From positions 120,016 through 184,015 of the forward strand of contig LBQD01000002.1 in the NCBI GenBank assembly GCA_000990585.1: DNA of 64,000 bases. The letters run 5' to 3'. Positions 1,913-57,866 of this stretch are shown in pieces. Made by a program: the position numbers and the translations under genes. Every line of letters begins with the position of its first letter. Position 1 is the stretch's first letter. Source of the DNA: Candidatus Moranbacteria bacterium GW2011_GWE2_35_2-. Its GTDB lineage: Bacteria; Patescibacteriota; Minisyncoccia; Moranbacterales; UBA9337. The notes under the pieces were generated by a model. It was not told the DNA's origin, searched no databases, and saw only the letters and a list, made by a program, of their open reading frames with translations.

Positions 1913-1985
1913 GCGCTTGTAGCTCAGTGGATAGAGCGTCTGGTTGCGGTCCAGAAGGTCGCAGGTTCGATTCCTGCCAAGCGCA
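1913..1985 (+). tRNA. tRNA-Arg (anticodon GCG, unusual)
   Basis: Sequence GCGCTTGTAGCTCAGTGGATAGAGCG-TCTGG-TTGCGGT-CCAGA-AGGTC-GCAGGTTCGATTCCTGC-CAAGCGCA. The acceptor 7/7 and anticodon stem 5/5 pair, and the loop is U33-GCG-R37. Confidence 0.75.
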
Positions 1986-2082
1986 CTAAGGTTCCCCGCC
2001 ATAGGCGGACCAGCAGACTGGGATTCCTGCCAAGCGCACTAAGGTTCCCCGCCATAGGCGGACCAGCTTCCTGCCAAGCACA
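1971..2082 (+). repeat. 2.3 tandem copies of a 44-53 bp unit (TTCCTGCCAAGCGCA-CTAAGGTTCCCCGCCATAGGCGGACCAGC) whose first copy is the tRNA-Arg 3' end
   Basis: Copies read at 1971-2014 and 2024-2067, with a partial third at 2068-2082. Each unit holds a CCGCC-ATA-GGCGG hairpin. Confidence 0.85.
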
Positions 2083-6599: not shown

Positions 6600-7715
6600 A
6601 TGTTTAATTTTTTTAAGAGTAAAGAAAATCGCTTTTTCGGGGTTGATTTTGGCGGGAGCGCTATCAAGGCAGTAGAACTTTCTTTAGAAAATCAAAAAGT
6701 TACTTTGATGAATTATGCATGGATTGATTTTAGCGGAGAACAAATAAAGGAAGAGCTGGATAGTCAATCTATTAATAAAATTACGGAAATTTACTTGGGT
6801 AAGCTCATAGATAAAATGGAGCCGAAAACTAAAAATGTTTGCGCTTCTATTCCGGGATTTAGCGGATTGGTTAATGTTATTGAGATTTCCAATATTAAAA
6901 AAGAGGAAGTGGGAAATGCTATCGAATACGAAGCGTATAAATATATTCCCGTTTCTTTGGATGAAGTGTATTTGTCATGGGATGTCCTTGATTTAGGAGA
7001 AGCGGATAGAAAAATCATTCAAAATGAAGAAAATGGCAAAGATTTTTCCGAAAAAAATGAGAAAGAAAAAATAAAAGTACTTCTTGTGGCTGCTCCAAAA
7101 GATGAAGTTAACAAATACGAAGAATTGATAATGAAAAATGGATTAAGAACTGCTACATTGGAATTGGACGTGTTTTCATCCGTACGTTCTCTTGTGGGAG
7201 ATGATATGGGGAATTATTTATTGATTGAAATTGGAGCGCGCACGACAACTATTGCCGCAATTAAAAAAGGTAATGTGATTATAAATCGTAATTTATATAT
7301 TGGCGGGAATGAATTTACAAAAAATATTTCCAGAGGAATGGATATTTCTTGGTTTAGGGCAGAAAGATATAAAAAAGAGAAGAAAGATTTAATAAATACA
7401 AATCAGGCGAGTGTAAATTTTTCCGCTTTGGATGTCATTTCCGGGGAAGCTAAGCGAATAATGCGAATGTTTCAAGAAAAAGAAGATGTGTCTCGAATGG
7501 ATGGAATTATTATTTCCGGAGGAACTGCAAAAATGGTTGGAATATTGGAATATTTTGAAAGGGAGCTGGGAAAGGGTGTTATAATTGGTAATCCGTGGAA
7601 AAAAGTGAAGTATGAAGCAAATTTGGAGGCGGTAATCAAGGATATCGGACCATCTTTTTCTGTTGCGGTCGGAGCGGCATTGAAAGGCGTGGAAGATTAT
7701 CAGCGAAATATTTAA
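6600..7715 (+). CDS. pilM: type IV pilus assembly ATPase-like protein PilM
   Basis: Actin-like fold; begins FFGVDFGGSAIKAV. Confidence 0.8.
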   Translation: MFNFFKSKENRFFGVDFGGSAIKAVELSLENQKVTLMNYAWIDFSGEQIKEELDSQSINKITEIYLGKLIDKMEPKTKNVCASIPGFSGLVNVIEISNIKKEEVGNAIEYEAYKYIPVSLDEVYLSWDVLDLGEADRKIIQNEENGKDFSEKNEKEKIKVLLVAAPKDEVNKYEELIMKNGLRTATLELDVFSSVRSLVGDDMGNYLLIEIGARTTTIAAIKKGNVIINRNLYIGGNEFTKNISRGMDISWFRAERYKKEKKDLINTNQASVNFSALDVISGEAKRIMRMFQEKEDVSRMDGIIISGGTAKMVGILEYFERELGKGVIIGNPWKKVKYEANLEAVIKDIGPSFSVAVGAALKGVEDYQRNI

Positions 7716-7791
7716 TTGAAAATATAAATCTTAAATTTTTTCGAATTTCTTGAATATTTTTATTCGGTTTTTCGAAAATAATATTAAAGCG

Positions 7792-8346
7792 ATGGTTAAT
7801 ATAAATCTTCACAGGGAAGAAAAAAAAGAAAATAGAATCTATGAATTGAATTTTTGGCGTAGCGGAACTTTTTTTTCAATAACTTTACTGATCGTGACTT
7901 CTTTTATTTATGCTGGTCAACTTTTATATAAAAAAAAGTTGGTTTCAAATGAAAATGCTATTATAAAGGAAATATCCGAAAAGAAAAGTTCTTTAGGAAG
8001 CGCGGCTCTTGTCAGTATTAAGGATTTCGATCAAAGGATTTCTAAGATTGATAATAATTTGGCACAGCGAGTTTATCCTAATGATGTGCTTGCTTATATA
8101 GAGGATTTTTTAGTAAAGAATGTTTATATTGATAGTTATAAATATGAAGATTCAAAGCAAGAGGTTGCGTTGAACGTAATAGCTGATAGCTATAATGCAA
8201 TAGCTAGTCAAATTTTAAATTTTAAAAAATCAGATAAGTTTTCTAATGTAGATATTTCCAGTACAAACAGAACGGAGGAGGGAAAAATAACATTTACATT
8301 AACGATGATTTTATCTAATTATAATAATCCGGAAAATAATTTGTAA
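7792..8346 (+). CDS. pilN: type IV pilus assembly protein PilN-like
   Basis: N-terminal MVNINL plus a single TM helix, placed after pilM. An internal Met start is preferred. Confidence 0.6.
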   Translation: MVNINLHREEKKENRIYELNFWRSGTFFSITLLIVTSFIYAGQLLYKKKLVSNENAIIKEISEKKSSLGSAALVSIKDFDQRISKIDNNLAQRVYPNDVLAYIEDFLVKNVYIDSYKYEDSKQEVALNVIADSYNAIASQILNFKKSDKFSNVDISSTNRTEEGKITFTLTMILSNYNNPENNL

Positions 8347-8367
8347 GAATAATTATTTTATAAAAAT

Positions 8368-9279
8368 ATGAAACTAAAATTCTTGTTTGTTCCCTTATCA
8401 ATCTTAATTTCCATAGTGTTGGTTATTTGGTACATTTGGCCGACATGGTTTGGCTTGGAGGGAATCAGAGAATATCAAAAGCGCATAGATATAAAAAAAT
8501 GCGAATTGGAAGAAGCGGATTTCAAAGTTCAAAACGCTGAAAGTTTGAAAAATTTTATGAGTTCTACTGATGGAAAAGTCTCAGTGGACAAGATTTATGA
8601 ATATTTTCCAATTGAAGAAAAGAATGAAAACATCATTAATGATATAAATTATATCGGAAACAGTTCTTCTGTAAGCATTATTGGCATAAATGTTAAAAGT
8701 GAAGAATTGAAGGATGATGATGATAAAGTTTTAACAACAGCAAAAGGTAGTGCAAATAAAAAATTATCCAGTACGCCTATGGCTAAAGCATGTTTAGATA
8801 GGATAGCGGAAAAATACGGAGACGTATCTGATATGGACATTAGTTATTTAGATCCTTTTGCCGGTCTGAACAATAGTTCCAGTGATATTGTTGGTGAAAT
8901 TGAGGGTACTAAAGAAAATTCAATAGTATCCATCAAAGCGGATGTTAAAGTTTCCGGTTCATATAAACAGTTGATTGTATTTTTGGATAATTTGTATCGA
9001 ATGAGGACTATAAATAATGTGTCCTCGATAAATATTTATAAGGATAATAATAAAAGAAATGAAGAGAATGCTGTTTCGAATCTCGATTTTTTGTCGATGG
9101 ATGTGAGTGCATATTTTGCTTATTTGCCAACGGATAATAATACCGCGCTAGGATTTGACGATCCAATTTTTGAAAAGAAATTATTTAATTTAACTGCCAT
9201 TAATAAATTAAATAAAATTGTGGAAATTCCAGAAATAAATATTGGTGATACGGGAAAAGACAATCCTTTTATTCCCTAA
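8368..9279 (+). CDS. pilO: type IV pilus assembly protein PilO-like
   Basis: N-terminal TM helix and its position between pilN and pilB. Confidence 0.5.
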   Translation: MKLKFLFVPLSILISIVLVIWYIWPTWFGLEGIREYQKRIDIKKCELEEADFKVQNAESLKNFMSSTDGKVSVDKIYEYFPIEEKNENIINDINYIGNSSSVSIIGINVKSEELKDDDDKVLTTAKGSANKKLSSTPMAKACLDRIAEKYGDVSDMDISYLDPFAGLNNSSSDIVGEIEGTKENSIVSIKADVKVSGSYKQLIVFLDNLYRMRTINNVSSINIYKDNNKRNEENAVSNLDFLSMDVSAYFAYLPTDNNTALGFDDPIFEKKLFNLTAINKLNKIVEIPEINIGDTGKDNPFIP

Positions 9280-9347
9280 TATAATTTTTGTTTAAAAAGA
9301 TGCTTAAGTTTAGGTTGATTATTAAAAATGAAAAATAAGCTGAAAAA

Positions 9348-11057
9348 ATGGAGGATAAAAATAAAAAACATCAAAAAGATGAAAAAAAATCAAATTCTTC
9401 AATAGTTGACAATGGAGTGGATTCGCTAGAGGAGAGAGCAAAGGAAATGAAAATTCCTTTTTTGAAAAAAGCTCCTTCGGCAGTCAGTGATTCGATTTTG
9501 AGAATAATTCCGGAAAAAACGGCGCGCAATTTTAATATGGTTGCATTTGAAGATTCTGAAAGCAAGGGAGTAAGTGTGGCAATGGTTGATCCGCAGGATA
9601 TTCAAGCACTGGACGTGCTTAGATTTATTGCAGAAAAAGAAAAAAAGGAAATAAATATTCATATAGCTTCTGCGGAAGTGGTAAGGGAAATCATTGATAA
9701 ATATAATACTGCCGAAGAAGCAGTAGAGGCGGTAGTTGAATCGTTTGAATTAGAGAGATTTAAGGATCAAAGATCTTTGTTGGGAAAAAGGAATGTTGAT
9801 GACCAACAAAATAATATACAAGATGCTCCGGTTTCAAAACTTGTAAGTGTGGTAATAAAACATGCTGTTGAAAAAAGAGCTAGTGATATTCATTTGGAGC
9901 CGACTGATGATGGTTATCGTATTAGGTTTCGTGTCGATGGAGTTCTTTATGCATCCTTGATTCTTCCAATGGAAGTAGGAAAGGCTTTTGTTTCGAGAAT
10001 TAAAATACTTTCAAATTTGAAAATAGATGAAAAACGAAAACCGCAAGATGGTAGATTCAATGTGAGTGAAGGCGGAGAAAATATTGATTTTCGCGTTTCT
10101 ACTTTTCCTGTTGTCGGAGGAGAAAAAGTAGTTATGCGTGTTCTTACTAAAGATAAGGGAATTTTTGATTTTAGCAAGCTGGGGCTTATTGGGCATAGCA
10201 AAGAGATTTTATCACGTAAAATTAATGAACCGAATGGAATTATATTAATTACTGGTCCTACCGGAAGCGGAAAATCAACAACATTGTATTCATTTCTTAA
10301 TGTAATCAATCAAGATACAAGAAATATTGTAACGTTGGAAGATCCTGTTGAATATTCAATAGAAGGTGTGAATCAAAGTCAAATTAAGCCGGAAATAGGA
10401 TATGATTTTGCTAACGGGCTACGTTCAATCTTGCGTCAAGACCCTAATGTTATTATGGTAGGAGAAATTCGTGATGGAGAAACAGCTGAGCTGGCAATTC
10501 ATGCCGCGCTTACTGGACATTTGGTTTTTTCTACCCTGCACACTAACAGCGCTATTGGCGCAGTTCCGAGGCTTGTGGACATGGGTATTGAGCCTTTTTT
10601 ACTTTCTTCCTCTCTTAAGGCTGTTGCTGCTCAGAGATTGGTGCGTAAAATTTGTACTTCTTGCAAAGAGGAATTTTCTGTATCCGATAAAGTAAAAAAC
10701 AATCTCTTAGAGGAAATAAAAAATGTGCCAGAAGAAGAATTGAAGAAATATGATCTGGACATATCCAAAGGATTGAAATTTTATAAAGGACGAGGATGTG
10801 AAGAATGTGGGGGGACTGGTTTGAAGGGTCGATTAGCAATTTATGAATGTATTGAGGTTAATGAAAGTATTCAGGAGGCAATCAATGAGGGTAAGGAAAT
10901 GAAAGTGGATGAATTGGCGAAAAGCCAAAAAATGATTACAATGAAGCAAGATGGAATATTGAAAGCGCTCAAAGGGATGACAGCTCTTTCAGAGGTTGAG
11001 AGAGTAACGGAAGGAAGTTTGACTATCGGAGGGGATGTGGATGATGATCGCGGATAA
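9348..11057 (+). CDS. pilB: type IV pilus assembly/extension ATPase PilB (GspE family)
   Basis: Walker A ILITGPTGSGKSTT, the GspE signature, and a C-terminal CxxC...CxxC motif. Confidence 0.9.
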   Translation: MEDKNKKHQKDEKKSNSSIVDNGVDSLEERAKEMKIPFLKKAPSAVSDSILRIIPEKTARNFNMVAFEDSESKGVSVAMVDPQDIQALDVLRFIAEKEKKEINIHIASAEVVREIIDKYNTAEEAVEAVVESFELERFKDQRSLLGKRNVDDQQNNIQDAPVSKLVSVVIKHAVEKRASDIHLEPTDDGYRIRFRVDGVLYASLILPMEVGKAFVSRIKILSNLKIDEKRKPQDGRFNVSEGGENIDFRVSTFPVVGGEKVVMRVLTKDKGIFDFSKLGLIGHSKEILSRKINEPNGIILITGPTGSGKSTTLYSFLNVINQDTRNIVTLEDPVEYSIEGVNQSQIKPEIGYDFANGLRSILRQDPNVIMVGEIRDGETAELAIHAALTGHLVFSTLHTNSAIGAVPRLVDMGIEPFLLSSSLKAVAAQRLVRKICTSCKEEFSVSDKVKNNLLEEIKNVPEEELKKYDLDISKGLKFYKGRGCEECGGTGLKGRLAIYECIEVNESIQEAINEGKEMKVDELAKSQKMITMKQDGILKALKGMTALSEVERVTEGSLTIGGDVDDDRG

Positions 11058-11130
11058 ATATGGTAGAATGAAATTGATTTGAAAAGTATTTTAATTATAA
11101 AACAATAATTAGGTTAATTTTTCGGAAACT

Positions 11131-11505
11131 ATGAAAAATAAAAAGCTGATTTTATTGGTGGAAGATGATATTTTCGTGAAAGATATTTATAATTACAAAC
11201 TTACATCCGAAGGATATGAGGTAGCAGTGGCAGGAAACGGAGCGGAAGCACTTAAATTTATGGAAAGCAGAAAACCGGATCTTATTTTATTGGATATTGT
11301 AATGCCGTTTATGGATGGGAAAGAAACGCTTCGAAAAATAAAATCTAACGATGAATGGAAAACAATTCCAATTATTATGTTAACTAATTTGTCGGAAGCT
11401 GATGATATTGAAGAAGTAGAATCTCTAGGTATAGATAAATATCTAATAAAATCGCATTTTTCTCCATCGGAAGTTTTTGCAAAAATTCAATTGATGATTG
11501 GATAG
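11131..11505 (+). CDS. stand-alone response-regulator receiver (CheY/PilH-like)
   Basis: LLVEDD...LILLDIVMP...K receiver motifs in a 124 aa protein. Confidence 0.85.
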   Translation: MKNKKLILLVEDDIFVKDIYNYKLTSEGYEVAVAGNGAEALKFMESRKPDLILLDIVMPFMDGKETLRKIKSNDEWKTIPIIMLTNLSEADDIEEVESLGIDKYLIKSHFSPSEVFAKIQLMIG

Positions 11506-11605
11506 GTAAAACTAATCATAGAATAGTATTCGCGTGCTTGAAAATCTAATGCTTTTTGTCTGAATGTATAAATTATATAGAAAACAAAAATAAAAAATAA
11601 ATATT

Positions 11606-12682
11606 ATGGAATCATTTCATGTCGAACAAAAAATAAAAAGCCTGCTACTTCTTGTTGCTCAGCAGGGCGCTTCGGATATTCATTTTGTCGTGGGACGTTA
11701 TCCGACGCTTCGGATTGACGGAAAGTTGCAACCAATAGCTAAGGAAAATATTTTAACTGCGGATGATACAAAAGCTATCAGTAAGGTTTTTCTCAGTGAA
11801 GAAAAAAGCAAGGAATTGGCGGAAACCGGAGAAACGGGATTTTCTTATAATTTTGAGAATAAAGCCAGATTTCGCGTGAATGTATTTTTTCAAAAAGGAT
11901 TCATTAGTATCGTTATGCGTCTGGTGCAGACAAAAATCCGAACTCTAGATGAATTAAATATGCCGTCTGCGCTCTATGATTTCACGAAACATTCGCAAGG
12001 ACTTGTTTTGGTTACCGGACCGGTGGGACACGGAAAATCAACTACTATGGCGGCTTTGGTTGATTATATTAATCATAATTATGAGAAAAATATTATTACA
12101 ATTGAAGATCCGATTGAATATATCTACGATCAAGATCGTTGTATTATAAACCAACGAGAAATCGGACAGGATGCGCAGAATTTTGAAAGAGCATTGCGTG
12201 CGGTTTTTCGTGAAGATGCCAACGTTTTGCTTATTGGAGAAATGAGAGATTTGGAAACTATCGCCACTACGCTCACAGCGGCGGAAACCGGACATTTGAT
12301 TTTTGCAACTATTCACACGAATAACAGTGCGGAAACTATCGATCGTATTGTGGATGTTTTTCCTTCTCATCAGCAAAATCAAGTACGTTCGCAATTGGCG
12401 AATGTTCTTCTTGGCGTTATTTCTCAGCGTTTGGTACCGAAGATAGGAGGAGATAGAATTCCAGCCGTTGAAATTATGGTGAAAAACAATGCGGTTGAAA
12501 ATTTGATTCGTGAAAATCGTTCATATCAAATTGACGGAGTAATTGAAACCGGAATGAGAGAAGGAATGGTTTCTTTGGATAAATCGCTTAGTGATTTGGT
12601 GAAAAAAGGATTGATTACGATTGATGATGCTTTTACGTACGCTAAAAATAAGGATTATTTTAAAATGTTAATCAAGAAATGA
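11606..12682 (+). CDS. pilT: twitching-motility retraction ATPase PilT
   Basis: LVLVTGPVGHGKSTT and PilT-family motifs. Confidence 0.9.
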   Translation: MESFHVEQKIKSLLLLVAQQGASDIHFVVGRYPTLRIDGKLQPIAKENILTADDTKAISKVFLSEEKSKELAETGETGFSYNFENKARFRVNVFFQKGFISIVMRLVQTKIRTLDELNMPSALYDFTKHSQGLVLVTGPVGHGKSTTMAALVDYINHNYEKNIITIEDPIEYIYDQDRCIINQREIGQDAQNFERALRAVFREDANVLLIGEMRDLETIATTLTAAETGHLIFATIHTNNSAETIDRIVDVFPSHQQNQVRSQLANVLLGVISQRLVPKIGGDRIPAVEIMVKNNAVENLIRENRSYQIDGVIETGMREGMVSLDKSLSDLVKKGLITIDDAFTYAKNKDYFKMLIKK

Positions 12683-12735
12683 AATTCCAATAAGTCCGAT
12701 TAGTCAAATAAGACAAATAGGACGAATAAAATATT

Positions 12736-13947
12736 ATGAAATTTGTTTTTGAAGCCAAAGATCAAAATGGAAAAGTGAAAAAAGGAAAAGTGGAGGCCGT
12801 CAACAAAGAAACGGCGGTTGAGGTTTTACATCAAAATATGTTAGTTCCTTTTTCTATTGAGCAGGAAAAGGAAATGAACAAGTTTCTCAAAGATTTGCAA
12901 AATTCATGGGATCGAGTGAGTCAGAAAGAATTGATGATTTTTTTTCGTCAATTTTCTACCTTGATTGGAGCTAAAGTTTCAATTATTAATTCTTTGCAGG
13001 CAGTGCGCGAGCAGATGGAAAACAAGGCATTGCGCAGGGTTATTCAGGAAATTTCTAATGATATCGAAGACGGAATGACACTGGCAGAAAGTCTTGAAAA
13101 ACATCCGGAAATTTTTTCAGCTCTCACAGTAAGTACGGTAAAAGCGGGAGAAGTTTCTGGAAATTTGCAAAAATCGATTTCCTATATCGCCGATAATATC
13201 GAGAAAAATTATCAACTTACCGCGAAAATAAAAGGAGCGCTTTTTTATCCGGTATTTGTTATTATTGCCGCATCAATCATCGGTTTTTTGACGATGATTT
13301 TTGTCATACCTAAACTTACTCAAGTTATTATTGATATGGGAGCGGAAATTCCTTGGTATACTCAAGTGATAATTACTACTTCTAGTTTTTTTGAAAATTA
13401 TTGGTGGGCGATTTTGGTGGTTATTTTGGGGGTTGTCGGAGGGAGTATGTATTACACTAGAACGGAATCCGGAAAAAGAGATTGGGATTTTGTTGTTTTG
13501 AAAATTCCAATTATTGGAAAATTGGCGCGATATGTATATATAACCAGATTTTCTAGTAATTTTTCAATGCTTTTAGCGGGAGGAATTCCGATTGTGCAGG
13601 CGCTTGTGGTGGTAAGCGAAGTTGTCAATAATACTATTTACAAGGGAATCATTCTTCGTGGCGCGGATGAGGTCAAGGCAGGGGGAAATATTAGCAGTAT
13701 TTTTTCCCGGTCGACATATATTCCCGTAATTGTCACCAGAATGATAAAAATAGGAGAAGAGACGGGAGAGATGAATGGTTCGCTTGACAGTATCGCCAGT
13801 TTTTATGAAAAAGAAACGGATAATATTGTTCGTAATTTGACATCATTGATTGAACCGGTTTTGATTGTGTTTTTGGGAATTGGTGTGGCAGTTTTGGTTT
13901 TTGCGATTTTGCTGCCAATATATAACATTACGGGAAATATTAAGTAG
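12736..13947 (+). CDS. pilC: type IV pilus inner-membrane platform protein PilC (GspF family)
   Basis: Two T2SS-F-like repeats and TM segments. Confidence 0.85.
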   Translation: MKFVFEAKDQNGKVKKGKVEAVNKETAVEVLHQNMLVPFSIEQEKEMNKFLKDLQNSWDRVSQKELMIFFRQFSTLIGAKVSIINSLQAVREQMENKALRRVIQEISNDIEDGMTLAESLEKHPEIFSALTVSTVKAGEVSGNLQKSISYIADNIEKNYQLTAKIKGALFYPVFVIIAASIIGFLTMIFVIPKLTQVIIDMGAEIPWYTQVIITTSSFFENYWWAILVVILGVVGGSMYYTRTESGKRDWDFVVLKIPIIGKLARYVYITRFSSNFSMLLAGGIPIVQALVVVSEVVNNTIYKGIILRGADEVKAGGNISSIFSRSTYIPVIVTRMIKIGEETGEMNGSLDSIASFYEKETDNIVRNLTSLIEPVLIVFLGIGVAVLVFAILLPIYNITGNIK

Positions 13948-14049
13948 TTCTATGTTTTATATTGAGGGTGTGATATAATTATTGTAAGGAAATTGGGATA
14001 GGTTTAAATATAGAAAATAAAAATTAAAAAAAAGAATGGAGGTGAAAAT

Positions 14050-14403
14050 ATGAAAAATACAATGAAAAAAGGTTTTACATTGATCGAACTTTTGATTGTT
14101 ATTGCAATTATCGGTATCTTGGCTTCCATCGTTTTGGTATCCTTGAACAGTGCGAGAACAAAAGCTAGGGATGCTCAGTTTAAGGCACAAGCTTCCAGTG
14201 TTCATGCGGCGGTTGTTATAGATTGTGATGATGGAACATATAATACTACCGAAGCTCTGCCTGATCCAACATCGTGGACAACTACTCCTGTTTGCGGATC
14301 TAGTGGAATTATCACATCCGGAGTTCTTGCGCCAGGCGCAACTGGAACTGCATGTACTTCGGCTACAATTTCAAATACTGGAGTTGTTTTTGCGGACTGC
14401 TAA
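14050..14403 (+). CDS. pilA: type IV major pilin (prepilin, class III signal G|FTLIELLIV)
   Basis: Prepilin motif [20 protein letters not shown], with RBS GGAGGTG. Confidence 0.9.
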
Positions 14404-14474
14404 TTTTAGTCTTTTTACCTACTAACATAAAGTTGGTAGGTATATGAGGTTAAAATTGTTTTATATTTTATATA

Positions 14475-14900
14475 ATGTTAAAAAAATATTTATTTACAGA
14501 AAGACAAGGGTTTACATTAATCGAGCTTTTGATTGTTATTGCAATTATCGGTATTTTGGCTTCCATCGTTTTGGTATCCTTGAATAGCGCGAGAATTAAG
14601 GCTAGGGATGCGTCATTCAAATCAACCGCGTCCAGTGTGAATGCGGCGGCAATGATGTGTTGTAATTCTGAAGGAATAATTCAAGAAAAAAATGCGGGTG
14701 ATGGTGGCGCGGTGGCAATTTGTAATCCTGCCCAAGGAACAGTCTATCCGGATGATGCAAATTTGGAAACAGCGGTTGTGAACACCGCTTGCGCCAATGA
14801 TCATTATCAAATTACTGTTACACCTGGAACAGGAAACCTTGGGACTTGTACTAGTGCGACATTTAATCAAACTGGAATTATCGGCTATGCCGGATGCTAA
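14475..14900 (+). CDS. type IV pilin paralog (second major-pilin-like gene)
   Basis: [30 protein letters not shown]; the first ~100 nt of the mature N-terminus are ~90% identical to pilA. Confidence 0.85.
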
Positions 14901-14956
14901 TTTTCAAGGAATTAGGAATCGAGACATATTTATAGGGTATTTACTTTTTTGAAGAT

Positions 14957-15754
14957 ATGATTATTTTAATTTTTTTTATCGGCGGTTTAATAACAGGGAG
15001 TTTTTTAAATGTTGTTGTATATCGATTGAATTTGGCAGAGTCGATGTTCGCTGGGCGATCGATGTGTCCGCATTGCAAAGCCAAAATCCGTTGGTATGAC
15101 AACATTCCGCTTCTTAGCTTTGTTCTTCTGCGGGCTGAGTGTCGCGATTGCAAGGGAAAAATTTCATGGCAATATCCATTGGTGGAATTTTTGACAGGAT
15201 TGTTTTTTGCGTTAATCGGTATGTGTTTTTTTTCTCTGACAGATTATCAGTCTTGGATTGAAACCGGATTTTTATTAGTGCTTTTTTCCGCGCTAATGGT
15301 GATTTTTGCTTATGATTTGAAGTTTATGGAAATCCCGATGATTTTTTTGTGGGCGGGAATCGGCTGGACACTGGTATTTTATATATATTTTGACGCAGTT
15401 AATTTTTCTGAATTTGCTTCAATGTTTTCTTCACAAACATTTTCCGGAATAATTGGTGCGTTTGTTGCTTGGGTATTCTTTTTTTCAATGGCATTTTTTT
15501 CCAAGGAGAAATGGATGGGAATGGGTGATGCTTATTTGGCGATACTTGTCGGACTTACAGTTGGATGGCCGAAAATTTTCCTAACATTAGTACTTTCTTT
15601 TTTATCGGGAGCGATTTTTAGTATATTTTTGATTTTATCTAAGAAAAAAAGCATGAAAAGCCAAGTGCCCTTCGCGCCTTTTTTGGTAATTGGAACAATC
15701 GCAACTCTTTTCTTATATCAAGCCTTTCCTCAATATTTGAAGTACTTGTTTTGA
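14957..15754 (+). CDS. pilD: prepilin peptidase PilD (A24 family)
   Basis: Zinc-binding CPHC...CRDC region and multi-TM peptidase A24 motifs. Confidence 0.85.
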   Translation: MIILIFFIGGLITGSFLNVVVYRLNLAESMFAGRSMCPHCKAKIRWYDNIPLLSFVLLRAECRDCKGKISWQYPLVEFLTGLFFALIGMCFFSLTDYQSWIETGFLLVLFSALMVIFAYDLKFMEIPMIFLWAGIGWTLVFYIYFDAVNFSEFASMFSSQTFSGIIGAFVAWVFFFSMAFFSKEKWMGMGDAYLAILVGLTVGWPKIFLTLVLSFLSGAIFSIFLILSKKKSMKSQVPFAPFLVIGTIATLFLYQAFPQYLKYLF

Positions 15755-15757
15755 AAT

Positions 15758-16375
15758 ATGATAAAAATAAAAAATAAATTTGTTCCAGGGTTTACTCTTC
15801 TTGAGGTTCTGGTCACAGTTGCCATTATTGGAATAATGGCAACTGTGGCACTTGTTTCAACGCAGAGAGGAAAAATCGACAAGGAAGTAAGCGTAGCGGC
15901 AGAACAGGTGGCTTCCAGTATTCGCGAGGCGCAAAATTACGCGCTGTCCGGAAAACAGCCGGATGCGACTAATACCGCTTGCGGCTTTGGTTTCAGAAGA
16001 AGTAGCGCAAATGCTTATAGTGTTTTTTATAATCATACTACGGAAGATTTAGTCACTTGTAATGCGATTATTAAATATTATAGTACCACTATTCCTAATC
16101 AGGTTTCAGCTAGTCTTAATTCTTCTGGTATTATTCTTCCAAATGGAGTTTCTTTCTATAATAATGCATCTACCGGAGCTATGAACTCTCAGATAGTTTA
16201 TTTTTTGATTCCTTTTGCGATTGTATATAATTTTGATGGAGATACTCTTGGAGCAATAAAAACAATTATGGTTGGAAAAGATTCTATTTATTATGCTATT
16301 TGCGTGAGTCCCGTGGGAGCTGTTGAAGTAAAGAAGGTTGAGGGTGATGAAGCGACATTTGATTGTGATAATTAG
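15758..16375 (+). CDS. minor pilin / pseudopilin (FimT/FimU-like)
   Basis: N-terminal GFTLLEVLVTVAIIGIM. Confidence 0.7.
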   Translation: MIKIKNKFVPGFTLLEVLVTVAIIGIMATVALVSTQRGKIDKEVSVAAEQVASSIREAQNYALSGKQPDATNTACGFGFRRSSANAYSVFYNHTTEDLVTCNAIIKYYSTTIPNQVSASLNSSGIILPNGVSFYNNASTGAMNSQIVYFLIPFAIVYNFDGDTLGAIKTIMVGKDSIYYAICVSPVGAVEVKKVEGDEATFDCDN

Positions 16376-16385
16376 TTTAATAGTT

Positions 16386-17000
16386 ATGAAATCAAAAATT
16401 AAAAATAAAAAGTTTTTAATTTCAATCAAGCGAGGGTTTTCTATCGGCGAAGTACTTCTAGCAGCCTTTGTTTTGAGTGTGGCGATGCTGGCGGCGGTTA
16501 ATCTTTTGATTGCCGGTTTTTCTAATTCCGCTGATAGTCGCGATCGCATTATTGCATCAATGTTAGTGCAAGAAGGAATTGAAATTGCTAGAAACGTTAG
16601 GGATAATAATTGGGCGACAGGAAAGGTTACTTTTAGTAATACTAATTTTCCGGACGTGAGTCGTGCTGCAGATAATACTCCTCTCGGATGTGCGCTTGAT
16701 AAAAATTCATTGGCGATTCGTGGTACTTGCGATAGCGCAGCAGTTTCAAAGGTTTTAAAAATCAATGCTGATGGATATTATATGAAAGTAGGTGCGACTA
16801 TAACAAAATTTAAAAGAAAAGTGATGATTCAATATTTTAATTCAAGCGGAGCTCCTTCAGATAGAGCCAGTGCTGCCACTGCAAAATTGACTAGTGTGGT
16901 GATTTGGGGAACTGATTGGCCAAAGATTGATCTTTCGGATTGTAGTACTGCGACTCGATGTGTTGCTGCGGTATCTATTTTGACAAAATGGGGAGAGTAA
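16386..17000 (+). CDS. minor pilin (PilV-like)
   Basis: RGFSIGEVLLAAFVLSVAM prepilin-like motif. The internal start avoids overlap with the upstream gene. Confidence 0.65.
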   Translation: MKSKIKNKKFLISIKRGFSIGEVLLAAFVLSVAMLAAVNLLIAGFSNSADSRDRIIASMLVQEGIEIARNVRDNNWATGKVTFSNTNFPDVSRAADNTPLGCALDKNSLAIRGTCDSAAVSKVLKINADGYYMKVGATITKFKRKVMIQYFNSSGAPSDRASAATAKLTSVVIWGTDWPKIDLSDCSTATRCVAAVSILTKWGE

Positions 17001-17025
17001 AATATTTAAAAATAACAGGTGTCAT

Positions 17026-17589
17026 ATGAAGATGTTAAAAATAAAAAATAAAAAAGGATATACTTTTTTGGAGGTAATAGTTTCAGTTTCCATCTTCGTT
17101 ATTATAATAGCCGCTTCCACGGATGCTTTTTCTAATTTGTTTAATAATTATCGAAAAATTCGCGATTTTCAGGAAAGTATAGAAAATGTTCAGTTTGCAA
17201 TGAGTGAGATAGCGAAAGTTCTCAGAACTAGTTCGATTGTTGATGATGGAAATTCTTTTGTCCAAGCTTTTGATTATTCGCAAGAAATTTGCGTGCGTTA
17301 TGAGATAAACGGCGGTCAATTAATGCGTGCATATGATGACAGTATGGCAACGAGTATTGATCCGTTGAGTGATTGTTCTGCTAGAAATTTTGCGGCGGAT
17401 GAATTTTTAAAAATGACAACTGGATCAATAAGTGGAAGTTTCAGTACAGTCTCCTCAAGTTCTGTCGTTGGATCTGAGGAAGTGGGAAAGGTCACGATTA
17501 TGCTTAACATCCAAAAAGGAGATTCAGAATTGATAAAACTGCAATCCTCTGTTTCTTTGCGTGATTATGAAAAAGCAGGCATTCAGTAA
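17026..17589 (+). CDS. minor pilin (PilW-like)
   Basis: KKGYTFLEVIVSVSIFVII. Confidence 0.65.
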   Translation: MKMLKIKNKKGYTFLEVIVSVSIFVIIIAASTDAFSNLFNNYRKIRDFQESIENVQFAMSEIAKVLRTSSIVDDGNSFVQAFDYSQEICVRYEINGGQLMRAYDDSMATSIDPLSDCSARNFAADEFLKMTTGSISGSFSTVSSSSVVGSEEVGKVTIMLNIQKGDSELIKLQSSVSLRDYEKAGIQ

Positions 17590-17617
17590 ATTAGTGGAAA
17601 TAATCTTTTGAAAATTT

Positions 17618-18964
17618 ATGAAAATTAAAAGAAAAAAAGGTTCAGTGTTGGTATTTACTTTAATTATTGTTCTTACGATTTTGGTTATTTCATTGGGAGC
17701 AGTAACTATTTCAACTACTGAATTGCGCTCGTCTTCTTCAACCGATAAAGCGACAATGGCTTTTCAAATTGCTGATACTGGCATGGAATCAATATTAGAG
17801 AAGATAAAAAGTTCTAATTATCTTGATGATACCATTCTGGAAGTTTTTTCGGATTGTGTAGATGGAAAAATATTAGAAATAATTGATGCAAATAAACAGT
17901 ATGAAATAGAATTTTTCAAGTATGATGATTCCCCGCTTGAGTGTAATGATAGAGTCGGAGATATCGGAAAAGCAAAATCATCAGGAAGTTATCTGTCTGT
18001 TGAGCGTGCCGTAAGCTCAAGTGTTTGTGTTTCCGGTTGGGAAAAAATAGGGGCAAATGATGGTAATTGGGATGGAATTGCGACTTCAAATGATGGAAAA
18101 AAGTTGGCAGCGGTTATTCGAGGGGGACAAATTTATACGTCAATTGATGGAGGAGAAATATGGACAGATAGAGAAAGTGATCGAAATTGGGATGTGATAG
18201 CTTCTTCAGGGAACGGGAATACTCTTTTGGCTGCGGATCAAGGGGGAATGTTGTATTTATCTATTGATTCCGGAATAAATTGGGATGCTCAATCTGATTG
18301 CGGAAATCATATATGGACGTCAGTTGCTGTTTCTGATGACGGAACACATTTGGGCGCAGTTTATCGTCCTGGTAATATTTGGATTTCTAATGATTCGGGA
18401 AATAATTGGAATGAAGAAACGGTCGAAGGCGGTGTTGCTCAGGGGTGGTTGGGAATTGCTTTTTCTGCTGATGGAGAAAAAGTGGTGGCAGTCAATGATA
18501 ATGTTAGCGGAGGGGAAATTTATATTTCATCGGATGGTGGAGATAGCTGGTCTCGTAAAAATTCGGGACTTGGAAGTTTACCGGCAGTAGCTGTTTCAGA
18601 TGATGGAAATAAAATAGCGGTAGGTAGATATGGAGGGCAGGTATATCGTTCAATTGATGGTGGAGATAATTGGTTGGCAGTTTCTAATTCTGGTTCAGGA
18701 AATTTATCTTCTGTGGCAATGTCTTCTGATGGAACGAAAGTTGTAGTTGCCAAGGGTACTGTTCCTCCAGCAGGAGCATTAGAGGGTTATGTGTATATTT
18801 CAAATGAAGGAGGAGATATAGGTACATGGAAAATGCATGATCCTGCTGAAGATGCAAGAGATTGGTCGCATGATTCTTTGGCAATATCGGAAGATGGAAA
18901 ACAAATTTTTGCCGCAACATATGATGTGACGGATGGAATTTGGAAATATCACGGGTGTAAATAA
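17618..18964 (+). CDS. PilX-like pilus-associated protein fused to a BNR (Asp-box) repeat beta-propeller
   Basis: The N-terminus KKGSVLVFTLIIVLTILVISLG...ELRSSSS...AFQIADTGMES is PilX_N-like. At least 6 S-x-D-x-G-x-x-W repeats follow (SIDGGEIW, SIDSGINW, SNDSGNNW, SSDGGDSW, SIDGGDNW). Confidence 0.65.
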   Translation: MKIKRKKGSVLVFTLIIVLTILVISLGAVTISTTELRSSSSTDKATMAFQIADTGMESILEKIKSSNYLDDTILEVFSDCVDGKILEIIDANKQYEIEFFKYDDSPLECNDRVGDIGKAKSSGSYLSVERAVSSSVCVSGWEKIGANDGNWDGIATSNDGKKLAAVIRGGQIYTSIDGGEIWTDRESDRNWDVIASSGNGNTLLAADQGGMLYLSIDSGINWDAQSDCGNHIWTSVAVSDDGTHLGAVYRPGNIWISNDSGNNWNEETVEGGVAQGWLGIAFSADGEKVVAVNDNVSGGEIYISSDGGDSWSRKNSGLGSLPAVAVSDDGNKIAVGRYGGQVYRSIDGGDNWLAVSNSGSGNLSSVAMSSDGTKVVVAKGTVPPAGALEGYVYISNEGGDIGTWKMHDPAEDARDWSHDSLAISEDGKQIFAATYDVTDGIWKYHGCK

Positions 18965-23503: not shown

Positions 23504-23637
23504 ATTTTCATTATACTGGGACATAGTGTTTCGAATGCGTATTTATAGTATATAATGGGGGTGGAGTCCGCCTATGGCGGAACAGCTTGTAGTTGAATTA
23601 AGATTAAGGTAAAAGTTTTTTTAAAAAAGTATGATAT

Positions 23638-23712
<75 letters not shown>

Positions 23713-23713
23713 A

Positions 23714-23797
23714 ATAAAAAGCAATGAGAGTAGTGGTTGCAGGTTCTCACCCTCACGGGTGATCATCCGTTAGGATGAAAATCCTGCCCCCGCAACA
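23714..23797 (+). repeat. partial duplicate of the tRNA-fMet 3' half (GTTGCAGGTTC...AAATCCTGCCCCCGCAACA) interrupted by a 32-nt insert of two hairpins
   Basis: 23779-23797 exactly repeats tRNA positions 23694-23712. The insert is TCACCC-tcac-GGGTGA plus TCATCC-gtta-GGATGA. Confidence 0.8.
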
Positions 23798-32623: not shown

Positions 32624-33258
32624 AGATATTCATAAATTCTTGACCTATTTCACGCATTTCTTCCAAATCATCAATATTCCAAATAGTTTCTTCGTCTCCA
32701 TAAATTTCGCAAAAATTATCATAAAGTTTTGACATTTCCTGAAATTTTTTCCCTGATATTTTTATTGTTTCCATATTTAATAAAATAATATTATTTATTA
32801 TACAAATCAATAGATCCACTTGATGCTGTAATATAATTTTTTTGCAATTGTTCTTTTCTACCGTTTAAATTCTGTATGCGAACATAAGGAGGATTTCCGA
32901 TTATAAAGTCAAAATTTTTATTAAACTTATGGAAGCAAAAATCATCAGGGATTGCGTTATATTTTTTAATTTTTGTTTTTGACAATTTCTGCAAATTTTG
33001 TTTTGTTTTTTCTGTGTACTCTTTCGATATATCGGCAAAATAAATATTATCTTCAATTACTTTTTCTATTTTTTTCCCTGATAACTTTGAAAATTTTTGA
33101 GCTGCAATGGTCGTAAATACCCCTTCGCCACAACCAGCGTCTAATATTCTTTCATTTCCGCTGAATTTATGATTACTAAATACTTCTTCAATCATAAAAT
33201 CAGCCACCCATTCAGGGGTAAAAACAATTCCATTTTCTTTTTTGATAGTCATATTCAT
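32601..33258 (-). pseudogene. decayed gamma-class N6-adenine DNA methyltransferase (Eco57I/TaqI-like), N-terminal 155 aa plus a frameshifted 72-aa fragment
   Basis: FTPEWVADFMI (motif X), ILDAGCGEGVF (motif I) and IIGNPPY (motif IV) are present, then a stop ~35 aa later. Motifs V-VIII and the target-recognition domain are missing, and the next ORF is in another frame. Confidence 0.6.
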
Positions 33259-33340
33259 ATCTGCCTGTATTATAACGTATTTTGGAATAAAATAAAAACC
33301 GTCTTTTCTGCAATTACATGAGCAAAAAAACACTTTATTC

Positions 33341-33399
33341 CTTTCTATAATTAATGAAAAAGAAATTTTAAAATTTTTTAAAACAATTGGGCGATAGCC
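33341..33399 (-). promoter_or_regulatory. 57-bp repeat R1 copy A, upstream of the MTase remnant (also found at 39747-39802)
   Basis: CTTTCTATAATTAATGAAAAAGAAATTTTAAAATTTTTTAAAACAATTGGGCGATAGCC matches the second copy at ~54/57. Confidence 0.7.
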
Positions 33400-33404
33400 C
33401 AAAA

Positions 33405-35818: not shown

Positions 35819-35848
35819 AAAAAAATAAAAAATAGCCCCCAAATAATC
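35819..35848. repeat. cassette E right inverted repeat (abuts the ATG), followed by hairpin CCCGCCGTAGGCGG
   Basis: AAAAAATAAAAAATAGCCCCCAAATAATC. Confidence 0.85.
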
Positions 35849-35935
35849 CCGCCGTAGGCGGAAAAACTTTTAATTTAAAAAATCAAATTTTCGTCTTTAT
35901 TCATTGCACAGAATCTGAAATTACCACCAAAGATG

Positions 35936-36724: not shown

Positions 36725-37708
36725 CTATTTCTTTTTGCATGTCAAAAAATTATCTAATGCTTCAAACGAATTAAATATATTTGAAGGTGATAATTCTAAA
36801 ATAATAGCAATCAGTTGCTCTGTTAATCTGATAAACATTTCCATTTCTTTATAGTCAATCTGCTCCGTCTTTTTGCCAAAATGAATTAGGCGATTTCTTG
36901 TTTTATTGATCCTCTGAATATTTTTTCTGGAAGTATCATCAATATTTTTTAAAAAATATTCGTTTAAGATAAAAGCGATTTTTTTATCGCCACTCATTTG
37001 TTCAATTGCTGTATTATCAAGCCATTTGCGATTTTTAATCGCAAAAATATGTTCCCAAATTGTCCAACAAGAAATAAATGCTGTTTCAATTATCTGTCTT
37101 TGCATAGCGGATTTGAATAAAAATAAAAAATATCCACCCTCGTATTCATTTTGCCATTTCTCACTTGAAATAAGATTGAGAACCTTGTTTATAGTATTCT
37201 CAAAACCTACATTGATTTGGTGATAATCAAAAACTGGTATGTCCTTCATTTCTATTTCAGTTTTTAATTTTCCAGTATTTATATTTTTCCACCTTGATTC
37301 GTATTGTATTGAACATCCTAGCTGACCACCATATTGATGTATTCTGTGATCGCTTATTATCGCGATATTTTCGCTATCCTCCCAGTCCTTTTTAAACACA
37401 TTTCTATCGGTAAATATGGTAAGTAAAAATAAAATATCATCAAGTTGTGTTAGCTTGTCATCACCGAATGGCAATACACATTTTTTCTCATTTTCTGGTA
37501 TGCCTACTTCTGCTGTTATTTGGTGTGAGCCAACTTTAATTGTTGTATTGAATTCGCTACCAAATGAATTTACCAAACACATCATGCCATCAAAAGCATC
37601 TTTATAATTTTTTATTCTTTTAAAAATATAGTCTCCTATTTTCAGTTCTTCTATGTATGGCTCAAATTCTAAATTGAAAATTTGCAGTATTTTATTTTTT
37701 TGTTCCAT
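36725..37708 (-). CDS. hypothetical protein (327 aa), last gene of the C5-MTase restriction-modification operon
   Basis: Sits 3 nt downstream of the C5-MTase stop; function unknown. Confidence 0.5.
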   Translation of the reverse strand: MEQKNKILQIFNLEFEPYIEELKIGDYIFKRIKNYKDAFDGMMCLVNSFGSEFNTTIKVGSHQITAEVGIPENEKKCVLPFGDDKLTQLDDILFLLTIFTDRNVFKKDWEDSENIAIISDHRIHQYGGQLGCSIQYESRWKNINTGKLKTEIEMKDIPVFDYHQINVGFENTINKVLNLISSEKWQNEYEGGYFLFLFKSAMQRQIIETAFISCWTIWEHIFAIKNRKWLDNTAIEQMSGDKKIAFILNEYFLKNIDDTSRKNIQRINKTRNRLIHFGKKTEQIDYKEMEMFIRLTEQLIAIILELSPSNIFNSFEALDNFLTCKKK

Positions 37709-37711
37709 AAT

Positions 37712-38689
37712 TTATTTTAAATCAGCCATTATTTTTTTTGCTAAATGGTGAGCAAAATTTACAGCAACAGCATTCCCAATCATTTTATATCCGTCAGCGA
37801 TATCACGATATTTGAAAATAAAATCATCAGGGAATGTTTGAATTCTTGCACATTCACGAACAGACAAACGACGATATAAATGTTCTTTTCCGGGAACAAA
37901 AATTCTTTTGTTTTGTTCAATGAATTTCATTTTTGGGGCTTGTGGATGAAGTGGAGCATGACGACCTCCTGCTTGAATTGTGAAAGAGGGTTCATCCCAT
38001 GAGCGAACGCGATTTCGCGACATATAAATTGAAGAAAAACCGCCATTCATATATTCGTGATTTGGGATTTTCAATACATCGCCATTTGTTTTATTTTTAT
38101 CTAAAGCAGGTTTTGCTAAACGTAAATCATAAATAGCGTCTTTCAATACAGGTTTATATTTTTGCGGTTCTGGAAATTCAAATTTTTTCTTTAGTTTTTT
38201 ATTATATCCCACAATAATGACACGTAATCTATCTTCAGGAACATCATAATCATTTGCATTCAATAATTTGCAAGAAATTTCATATCCAGCATTCTCAAAT
38301 TCTTTTATTATATTTGAAAAAGCCTCTTTGTGTTTAGGATGAAGAATACCCGATACATTTTCTGCAAGAAAAAATTTTGGCTGTTTTTCTTTTAATAAAC
38401 GGATATAATCATAAAATAATTTTCCTCGCTTGTCATTTATTCCACGCCCAGCTCCAGCCTCACTCCAACTTTGACAAGGTGGTCCGCCAATAATTCCGTC
38501 AACATCAGGAATTTCAGAAGCGGGAACATCAACAATACTTCTTTTATCAAGTTTTGTTTTTGGAAAATTGTGTTCAAAAGTTTCCCAAATAGTTGGGTCA
38601 TATTCATTTGCCCAGATGACATGAAAACCAGCTTTTTCAAAGCCTAGATCAAGTCCTCCTGCACCTGTAAACAATGAAGCTATTTTCAT
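37712..38689 (-). CDS. DNA (cytosine-5)-methyltransferase, small M.HhaI-size enzyme
   Basis: Motif [12 protein letters not shown], motif [11 protein letters not shown], motif VI ENV and motif X GNAVAV. Confidence 0.9.
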
Positions 38690-38691
38690 AA

Positions 38692-39672
38692 TTATTCGTG
38701 ACTAATATTTAGTGTGTTTTTAAATAATTTTTTCGGTGATTTCAAAAGATTTATATCAAATTTCAAAGACGATTCAACTCTAGAACTTGCATTATGAATA
38801 CGAAAAGAAAGAGTCCAATCATTATTCATGGTTACTATTGCTGTTGTTTGACTATCGGTTTTGAAACAAATATCAACAATTTCTGTTGGCAATGGAACTT
38901 TTGGTGTTTTGTATTTTGGAAGAATGTCGTCAAAAGGTAAATTTAATGTTCCATTCAAATTGTAAGCGTGTATTTCTACACTATTTTTGCCCTTAATAAC
39001 TTTGTAAAAATCTTTATTTCCAACAAGGTATGCGACTAGATTAGACGCTACTTTTTTAAAATCTTTTTTGTATAGATTTTTTAGTTCTTTAATAAAGGCT
39101 TTTAAAATTGGAATATAGATTGATGAATGATAATCACCAAGCTCACTCCATTTTTTCTTTGCACCGCTTTCTTTTCTAATTTTTTCTAAATTAGAAAAAA
39201 TAGGTTTTACTGTGTCAAAATATTCTTTTGATGTTTTTATTCCAAGCCACTTTTCACCAAAATCAATATTCGAAGATAGTCGGGAGTGCTTTACTGCATG
39301 ATGATTGTTTTTGGCTGATACTCCAATTTCCCATTTTTGCAATAAACGAATTGCTAAAACATCTCTAACATCGCCTGATTTTCCATGTTGATCTGATAAA
39401 ATTTCAAGTTGCAGAATATCGTCTTTGCCAATATCGTTTGTGAGACGTGGCTCTATATCCATTAAAAAATTAACTGCAAAACTAGCAGTGAGTAGATAAT
39501 CGCTCTTTTCTGTTTCGCTCACATTCTCAAAACAGCCTTTTGCAATTTCAAAAGAAGAATTTTTGATAACTTCAAGATTTGTTTTGTCTTTCAATTTTTC
39601 TTCAAATTGAACAAGCAAAGCATACTCAAAAGATTTTCCAGTTGTCATTTGTCTTGATGCAGTAGTTGTCAT
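38692..39672 (-). CDS. putative type II restriction endonuclease (possibly HaeIII-like family), first gene of the operon
   Basis: Called from its position 2 nt upstream of the C5-MTase and an N-terminal GKSFEYALL motif recalled from GGCC-type endonucleases. The family call is tentative. Confidence 0.4.
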
Positions 39673-57772: not shown

Positions 57773-57866
57773 TTTTTAGCTTTTTAGAAATTAGCTTTTT
57801 AGCTTTTTAGCTTATAGATCTGAAAGCCTAAAAAGCCACAGCCTATAATCTAATTGCTAATTTACG

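Follow-up and report, generated by a model that had tools for sequence, protein, structure and literature searches.

The closest precedent for the repeat array described here is the tyrT-tyrV locus of Escherichia coli with its rttR repeats, in which head-to-tail units likewise follow a tRNA gene and each unit ends in a segment of the tRNA 3′ part that starts at the end of the T-loop. The rttR repeats yield a processed RNA (rtT RNA) and a small open reading frame (ORF), tpr. The array in question lies in a 64,000-nucleotide stretch of the genome of Candidatus Moranbacteria bacterium GW2011_GWE2_35_2- (the window), where a gene for tRNA-Arg with a GCG anticodon is followed by 53-nt units made of the tRNA 3′ end, a short filler and a twin palindrome. 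In a direct sequence check of the E. coli K-12 tyrT locus, the 17-mer TCCTTCCCCCACCACCA occurred six times, three of the copies lying downstream at a spacing of 178 bp. The two arrays differ in that the E. coli unit measures 178 bp as opposed to 53 bp, that its copies include CCA and that it has no twin palindrome, and the Rfam family rtT has no match in the window at the gathering threshold. The window repeat is of a known general kind, a polymorphic minisatellite, with an unusual building block. To the proposal that a functional tRNA-Arg(GCG) gene is followed here by a non-coding minisatellite, formed by duplication of the tRNA 3′ part, insertion of a palindrome and expansion or contraction of the resulting unit, we assign slightly better than an even chance.

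Remnants of attachment (att) sites, and tandem att arrays such as those of the ssrA islands of Dehalococcoides (PMC3146451), also consist of direct repeats, several in a row, that are taken from the 3′ end of a small RNA gene and have their boundary in one of its loops. The direct repeat of the window is likewise the 3′ part of a tRNA gene, but it comes without an integrase, cargo or element-sized foreign DNA, and its copies are separated by spacers of only 36 nt that are identical to each other.

As regards the palindromes, hairpin-ended derivatives of the IS200/IS605 insertion sequences and the REP-associated tyrosine transposases (RAYTs) offer a comparison, and the GC clusters of yeast mitochondria are comparable palindromic selfish insertions. 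Rickettsia palindromic elements (RPEs) are said by Ogata et al. 2000 to be inserted in frame in protein genes and in RNA genes; to our knowledge, none has been described as linked to tRNA pseudo-fragments. The repetitive extragenic palindromes (REPs; PMC3733652) with which we compared the window elements are short and GC-rich, and REPs, their hairpin-forming doublets (REPINs) and IS200/IS605 derivatives resemble the window family in being short GC-rich palindromes that are often paired and show compensatory changes. A trait of the IS200/IS605 kind is also found in the insertion in ksgA described below, which lacks a target-site duplication. The palindromes of the family depart from REPs and REPINs in measuring 15 nt as opposed to 20-40 nt, in having no GTAG/CGTC tag, in their low copy number and in being intragenic in many cases. 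The RPEs (mentioned in PMC1779305) resemble the present elements, seen in ksgA and RecG, in being kept in frame in conserved protein genes of a reduced AT-rich genome, whereas the present elements are 15-30 nt long as against about 100-150 bp and belong to another lineage. In sum, the palindromes behave like REP/REPIN elements, IS200/IS605 derivatives and RPEs but differ from these families in defining traits such as size, tags and copy number, and they showed neither an associated gene among the scanned window ORFs nor a clear strand bias. Neither Rfam 15 nor the searchable literature on palindromic insertions and tRNA fragments in bacteria of the Candidate Phyla Radiation (CPR) yielded a description of the palindrome family, and both the palindromic building block and the tRNA-fragment pattern appear undescribed there.

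Structure of the repeat array

The tRNA-Arg gene was called by ARAGORN on the window at 1913-1986 with the anticodon gcg, in agreement with the sequence-only reading, the account of this DNA that preceded our analysis; Rfam scores RF00005 at 1913-1985 with 74 bits against a gathering score of 29, and an identical tRNA-Arg is present in other assemblies of the same organism. The tandem copies of the tRNA 3′ end with a hairpin module, which that reading had placed directly behind the gene, were recovered by a repeat search at the same positions. Two 46-nt copies at 1969-2014 and 2022-2067 are 100% identical with a period of 53, and TTCCTGCCAAGCGCA occurs three times, at 1971, 2024 and 2068, the third time with a G-to-A change (GCGCA to GCACA). 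Compared with dinucleotide shuffles, the 25-nt hairpin tail gave 2 matches where 0.00 were expected, and the 15-mer of the tRNA 3′ end gave 3 where 0.16 were expected. Tandem Repeats Finder at default settings did not list the array, and the call rests on the repeat search and on direct reading.

Some boundaries had to be redrawn. The 15-nt 3′ end had been correctly seen as repeated, but the shared block starts two bases earlier (GATTCC..., at T-loop G57); the 9 nt noticed between the copies comprise the last part of the second hairpin (CCAG-CAGA-CTGG) and a GA; and the partial copy at 2068-2082 abuts the second unit through the loss of 9 nt (AGACTGGGA) that are present in other assemblies. 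The hairpin module had also been seen, but not its membership in an independent family of mini-palindromes. As now drawn, the 53-nt unit consists of 17 nt of tRNA 3′ end, a 9-nt filler and a 27-nt double hairpin. R1, cited below, is a covariance model of the twin-palindrome doublet.

1913 to 1985, + strand: tRNA-Arg, anticodon GCG, functional copy, CCA not encoded (ARAGORN; Rfam RF00005; identical in other assemblies)
1969 to 1985, + strand: repeat copy 1, GATTCCTGCCAAGCGCA, from T-loop G57 to the discriminator base, within the tRNA
1986 to 1994, + strand: filler CTAAGGTTC of the first unit
1995 to 2021, + strand: twin palindrome copy 1, CCCGCC-ATA-GGCGGA plus CCAG-CAGA-CTGG, at pseudo T-loop position 56/57 (DNA fold; R1, 17.2 bits)
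2022 to 2038, + strand: second copy of the 3′ part of the tRNA, with the same sequence as copy 1
2039 to 2047, + strand: filler of the second unit
2048 to 2067, + strand: twin palindrome copy 2, truncated, with hairpin 1 intact and hairpin 2 cut to CCAGC (comparison with other assemblies)
2068 to 2082, + strand: terminal degenerate copy of the tRNA 3′ end, TTCCTGCCAAGCACA, with G to A at position 71, followed by the native AT-rich flank

The first bases of the filler, CTAA, are the usual start of the trailer in this clade, and the remaining AGGTTC resembles the T-stem 5′ strand and the first T-loop bases. The insert joins the tRNA 3′ end as GCGCA-CTAAGGTTCC... on the left and as ...CCAGCAGACTGG-GATTCC on the right. 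The GCACA of the terminal copy is the acceptor variant of related species such as that of locus L010 (loci from other assemblies and genomes are given by such numbers). The GC content of the array is about 66%, as against about 34% for the window and the genome. No terminator was found upstream of the array and the next promoter lies beyond it, so it is probably transcribed as a 3′ trailer and then trimmed off.

Copy number among assemblies

The same locus was retrieved from other assemblies by the exact sequence of two flanking proteins and read side by side.

L002: a single unit followed by the terminal copy; the contig is named k141
L001, L005 and L006: 2 full units; the L006 contig is named k127
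L008: at least 3 units; the contig begins within the array
L007: at least 4 units; the contig begins within the array
L004: the contig ends within the array

The window itself has 2 units, the second of them minus 9 nt, a deletion that the other inspected assemblies do not show. Wherever an assembly extends as far as the distal end, it has the terminal GCACA copy and the same AT-rich flank. With 53-nt units arranged head to tail, and with unit numbers that differ between identical flanking genes, the repeat is a variable number tandem repeat and a true polymorphic minisatellite, which supports the suggestion of the sequence-only reading that replication slippage had produced a minisatellite seeded on the tRNA. 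Arrays of 1 and 2 units are shorter than k if the contig names are taken to give it (141 and 127), and on that reading single k-mers span them and they would therefore be real alleles and not collapsed repeats; longer arrays would exceed k, and hence the contig breaks in L004, L007 and L008. The contigs of L003 and L009 break at this place as well.

One assembly deserves separate mention. In L003 (DODQ01000003.1, last 66 nt) a tRNA of the window type is joined to a module of the L010 type, with a C2-A71 mismatch, and then the contig ends; L009 (DODQ01000007.1, first bases) belongs to the same public metagenome-assembled genome. L003 looks like a fresh horizontal integration, but the contig ends 66 nt on and the tRNAs of the two species share 28 nt, and it may be a chimeric contig end formed through that shared stretch.

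The twin-palindrome family

The hairpin of the array is a member of an independent family of mini-insertions. The consensus of the twin palindrome is TCCGCC-N3-GGCGGA plus CCAGCC-N3-GGCTGG, each 15 nt long and 30 nt when paired, and six further genomes in the set have perfect doublets of the full 30 nt. The window has five palindrome sites, one of them intragenic. Three lie in the Arg array and beside tRNA-Met; those apart from tRNA genes are as follows.

43045 to 43074, + strand: twin palindrome TCCTCCAAAGGCGGA plus CCAGCCCGGGGCTGG, in frame (PPKADQPGAG) in the ksgA/rsmA ORF at 42803-43699
35846 to 35863, no strand assigned: solitary palindrome CCGCC-GTA-GGCGG, apparently intergenic (R1 model search, listed at 35849)

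Within the window, R1 scored 44.8 bits at ksgA, 23.0 at the tRNA-Met 5′ fragment and 17.2 at the Arg array, all with E-values of 0.04 or better, while its 9.3 bits at the tRNA-Met 3′ fragment (E = 2.3) are within the chance range.

The insertion in ksgA/rsmA, the gene for the 16S rRNA dimethyltransferase, is the clearest case. Its product matches, at 100% identity, a protein named from Candidatus Moranbacteria bacterium GW2011_GWE2_35_2-, and the inserted segment sits in a protein loop and is extra relative to solved KsgA structures. In the closest orthologue, L106 (89% identical), exactly those 10 codons, or 30 nt, are missing; a second orthologue retains a decayed copy of the palindrome, and a third has an insert of the CCTGCC...GGCAGG type at the same spot. 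The DNA alignment (...CAATTTT, the 30 nt, then CAATTTTC...) shows clean presence or absence with L106 as the empty site and without duplication of the target. The direct repeats around the ksgA hairpin were examined as a target-site duplication and ruled out, because in the orthologue alignment the NFQFSI/NFQSIS repeat was there before the insertion, which comprises exactly 30 nt. In RecG of L051 (L051:3447-3476) a 12-aa insertion with the twin palindrome is missing from 14 orthologues. The same or related palindromes lie in frame in long conserved ORFs at L033:215-244 (TsaD-like), L089:2474-2492, L079:4548-4575, L012:4526-4570 and L016:3122-3160; the ORFs with such further in-frame copies include TsaD-like and RecG-like proteins. 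Members of the family turn up only at sites that can tolerate them, such as the loops of tRNA pseudo-fragments and permissive loops of proteins.

The module in close relatives and at other tRNA genes

A hairpin module of the window type is found in exactly those three hosts that are closest by a flanking 178-aa protein, L088 (90% identity to the window), L033 (68%) and L059 (64%). In these three the homologous hairpins occupy the same site and show compensatory stem changes (for example CCGCC/GGCGG versus CAGCC/GGCTG), and the second hairpin is almost invariant across the four species. A tandem array has arisen independently in L088, where the unit is 64 nt long and the assembly has a gap. By sequence comparison the window-type module looks vertically inherited, and the occurrence of the arrangement of tRNA and hairpin at one and the same site in the closest relatives implies that it predates the species. 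The T-stem 5′ strand and TTC are intact to the left of the hairpin in L033-Arg, which has an unbroken GCAGGTTC, in the window tRNA-Met and in L033 tRNA-Glu, whose copy is preceded by GGGAGTTC. From this the distal copy can be read as a longer tRNA 3′ fragment with the hairpins placed in its T-loop between positions 56 and 57.

The design of the Arg unit recurs in single copy at the tRNA-Met gene of the window (23638-23712), which has pseudo-fragments on both sides.

23555 to 23581, + strand: tRNA-Met 5′ pseudo-fragment GGGGTGGAG plus palindrome TCCGCCTATGGCGGA plus ACAG, at the D-arm position before CAG
23735 to 23797, + strand: tRNA-Met 3′ pseudo-fragment GGTTGCAGGTTC plus TCACCCTCACGGGTGA plus TCATCCGTTAGGATGA plus AAATCCTGCCCCCGCAACA

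In the 3′ fragment a T-stem encloses two hairpins, and behind it the last 19 nt are repeated; its DNA fold is much better than that of shuffles (z = -4.45). Another piece of this sort may lie at 1080-1200 of the window, upstream of tRNA-Ser(TGA) (- strand), where the end of a D-loop and an anticodon-arm-like hairpin of tRNA-Ser (CAGTCTTG...AAGACTG) can be made out as a possible pseudo-fragment.

Spare tRNA pieces were counted with ARAGORN on about 95 loci, as the tRNA's own 3′ 15-mer within 400 nt downstream or its own first 12 nt upstream.

Arg(GCG): 3′ copies downstream 26/81; 5′ copies upstream 10/83
Ser(TGA): 3′ copies downstream 10/55; 5′ copies upstream 10/53
Ser(GCT): 3′ copies downstream 10/38; 5′ copies upstream 7/40
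Glu: 3′ copies downstream 4/6; 5′ copies upstream 1/5
Pro: 3′ copies downstream 0/8; 5′ copies upstream 0/9
Arg(CCG): 3′ copies downstream 0/6; 5′ copies upstream 0/8

Roughly a quarter to a third of the examined tRNA-Arg and tRNA-Ser loci have such 5′ or 3′ pieces. The 5′ fragments upstream of tRNA-Arg contain the same small palindromes at fixed positions, namely directly behind nt 12 or nt 21 and within the anticodon loop. Interrupted 5′ pseudo-copies of tRNA-Arg are present at L088:5114-5197 and in L043, L027, L044, L103, L075 and L028; the L043 fragment has three insertions, and L044 has two fragments in tandem.

Many of the downstream 3′ copies close a larger module of 150-165 nt. Modules of this kind lie downstream of tRNA-Arg(GCG) at the following places, among others.

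L010:1367-1514, - strand
L021:3359-3506, + strand
L015:6672-6833, - strand
L023:3195-3357, - strand

Each is built of an inverted tRNA 3′ end that is split by a covarying hairpin, a conserved core (GGAATCGAAMGCCGGAGC ... GAGGCGG ...) and a direct tRNA 3′ end. The consensus structure is well supported and comprises 40 pairs, of which 15 show compensatory changes. No Rfam family matches the module, and a permissive scan with one A-type module yielded nothing beyond a chance match to a snoRNA. Homologous cores whose ends match tRNA-Ser occur in L074 and L030. One subfamily is 86-98% identical while the syntenic protein of its hosts is only about 58-65% identical, and the type of module does not track host relatedness, which together suggest from sequence comparison that these modules may have spread horizontally.

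Origin of the array

The scheme that we favour has three steps. A tandem duplication of the tRNA 3′ part, from the T arm to just beyond the 3′ end, would have left an intact gene and a spare fragment; a GC-rich twin palindrome of 27-30 nt would then have landed in the spare T-loop between C56 and G57; and unequal recombination or slippage between direct repeats of at least 17 nt would have changed the number of 53-bp units. The polymorphism itself is observed, and because such repeats flank the insert the unit can expand and contract (1, 2, at least 3 and at least 4 units in one population).

Several points weigh against this scheme. The order of its first two steps, duplication before hairpin, is deduced rather than observed. 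The high frequency of partial tRNA duplicates (26/81 for Arg, and also Ser and Glu) is not accounted for. No enzyme that could move the palindromes, including a Y1/HUH transposase or a RAYT, was found in the scanned ORFs of the window, and the orientation of the palindromes relative to local GC skew (7 consistent, 5 inconsistent) gives no clear replication-strand bias. The Arg unit alone folds weakly (z = -1.35). Finally, the compensatory changes that keep hairpin 1 foldable across species could mean selection for a function, of which the scheme has no need.

A scar of repeated integration and excision had been offered in the sequence-only reading as the other possible origin. According to this explanation, T-loop insertions of the tyrosine-integrase type brought in a new 3′ end (GCGCA plus CTAAGG...), displaced the old one and accreted into an array. 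It has real points of contact with the locus: the repeat starts in the T-loop, which is reportedly (Williams 2002) a classic crossover site of integrases within tRNA genes, the distal GCACA mismatches the tRNA 5′ strand as a displaced old end would, the 150-165-nt modules of other Patescibacteria hint at horizontal spread, and tandem att-site arrays are known at tRNA and tmRNA genes (PMC3146451). Against it, no integrase, recombinase or transposase was found among about 50 scanned ORFs of the window, and among 69 ORFs that follow tRNA-Arg in the loci a crude motif search gave no tyrosine-recombinase signature. The comparison of the locus in related genomes that had been proposed found no integrated element in about 95 loci, and no distant copy of any tRNA 3′ end within the 8 kb of each. 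Viral contigs were scanned four times, for the tail of the hairpin, for the junction on the right, for downstream sequence of the L003 type and for the core of the A module, and none of these matched; one metagenome scan matched L010 of the related species alone and no parent element; and Rfam at gathering thresholds reported only tRNAs and tmRNA in the window and ten loci. In addition, a 53-bp unit is too small for an integrating circle, identical units point to recent amplification, the palindrome is also inserted in protein genes without tRNA sequence, and the sole apparent fresh integration (L003) may be an assembly chimera. We regard integration scars as an unlikely origin of the array.

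Somewhat less likely still is that the hairpins and the spare 3′ end are a functional RNA, either a selected trailer structure that acts as a processing or stability signal or an alternative 3′ end for the tRNA 5′ strand. The conservation described above is what this explanation would predict, with the module at the same site in four species (flanking protein identity down to 64%), compensatory stems and a nearly invariant hairpin 2, as is a module of about 66% GC in a genome of 34% that has no terminator ahead of it. In the minimum-free-energy fold the partner of the tRNA 5′ strand is the second 3′ copy, and the tRNA-Met module folds with z = -4.45; the fold of the whole Arg region, however, is no better than that of shuffles (z = -1.07). 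A selected structure is also hard to reconcile with 1 to at least 4 units plus a partial deletion within one population, with the absence of the module from about two thirds of related genomes and of any matching Rfam family, and with the in-frame palindromes of ksgA, RecG and a TsaD-like ORF, where a role as RNA is unlikely.

That an assembler produced the tandem copies, which reads would collapse to one, is very improbable: the contig breaks exactly at the array, the unit numbers that differ between assemblies and the 9-nt deletion seen in the window only would agree with it, but the repeat recurs in four or more independent assemblies from different assemblers, the alleles of 1 and 2 units have unique sequence on either side, homologous modules exist in L088, L059 and L033, and the same architecture stands at the tRNA-Met of the window, so that it is the exact copy number of the window, and not the existence of the repeat, that should be distrusted.

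Four other candidates were set aside, namely a T-loop intron, a CRISPR-like array, a guide-RNA-like scaffold with a target copy and a reverse-transcription stop at m1A58. The grounds were that the interrupted copy always stands beside an intact tRNA, that the spacers are identical, that no associated genes were seen, and that the copies lack CCA and extend into the T-stem in a fuzzy manner.

The GCG anticodon

The anticodon itself had been described in the sequence-only reading as an uncommon oddity, and here our results differ. A scan of one genome per GTDB species, with a pattern made of the GCG anticodon arm and the T arm of the window tRNA-Arg, matched 95 species-level genomes, nearly all with a Patescibacteria/CPR label. 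The groups with tRNA-Arg(GCG) are Moraniibacteriota, Parcubacteria, Saccharibacteria, Berkelbacteria, Komeilibacteria, Gracilibacteria and Woesebacteria, and in several of the 95 loci tRNA-Arg(CCG) lies directly downstream. Because these mostly patescibacterial genomes share the tRNA, often with an adjacent CCG isoacceptor, the GCG anticodon is the norm of the lineage and no peculiarity of this gene.

The anticodon loop reads UUGCGGU and thus contains the identity base C35, and the D-loop (...GUGGAUAG...), read directly and on our numbering, agrees with the identity base A20. The gene encodes G34 and not the A34 of inosine-type CGN decoding, and no deaminase domain (tadA) was found among the approximately 50 scanned window ORFs. 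Loss of the inosine system in some bacterial lineages has already been documented (PMC6063277, PMC3711424). The tRNA-Arg(GCG) reads CGU and CGC and is the standard solution of the lineage. Since G34 cannot read CGA, which is as common in the window ORFs as CGU (118 codons each), we infer that a UCG isoacceptor must exist elsewhere in the genome.

Neighbouring features

The genes of the window are typical of CPR bacteria and include a type IV pilus cluster, LigA, GatCA, PNPase, SmpB and transfer-messenger RNA (tmRNA). The pilus cluster at 6600-18961 (+) is complete, with PilM/N/O, two PilB/T-type ATPases, PilC, several pilins, a prepilin peptidase and a PilX-like protein with a Sortilin/BNR domain, and it fits the DNA-uptake lifestyle proposed for CPR bacteria. 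The tmRNA at 57866-58262 (-), with the tag peptide ANFISKVKATFARNFAFASAIA, lies beside smpB (58365-58811); it is ordinary and confirms a bacterial genome of the CPR type. At 36725-39672 (-) there are a HaeIII-type restriction endonuclease, a C5 cytosine methylase and a HEPN (Apea-like) protein. The surrounding low-GC stretch at about 31-40 kb (27-34% GC) has a reversed GC skew and a fragment of an Eco57I-type methylase at 32794-33402, and it looks like an acquired defence island.

Implications

The polymorphic array is a useful strain marker and at the same time a caution for genome curation, since assemblies break there. In streamlined CPR genomes with single-copy tRNA genes, tiny palindromes occupy some of the spare tRNA pieces and also ksgA, recG and a tsaD-like gene. 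A wider reading, which we put forward tentatively and at somewhat less than an even chance, is that Patescibacteria carry ultra-small palindromic insertion elements (15 nt when single, 30 nt as twins) that make no target duplication and enter sites able to become single-stranded. Such sites would be the T-, D- and anticodon loops of tRNA copies and, in frame, AT-rich stretches of essential protein genes. Together with tRNA duplications and the modules of about 150 nt, these elements would make tRNA genes hot spots of mobile DNA, and the window array would be one amplified example. If they are truly mobile, the palindromes would be among the smallest insertion elements known and a tractable case of selfish DNA that survives in minimal genomes, as well as a source of variation in protein loops and RNA flanks of uncultivated bacteria.

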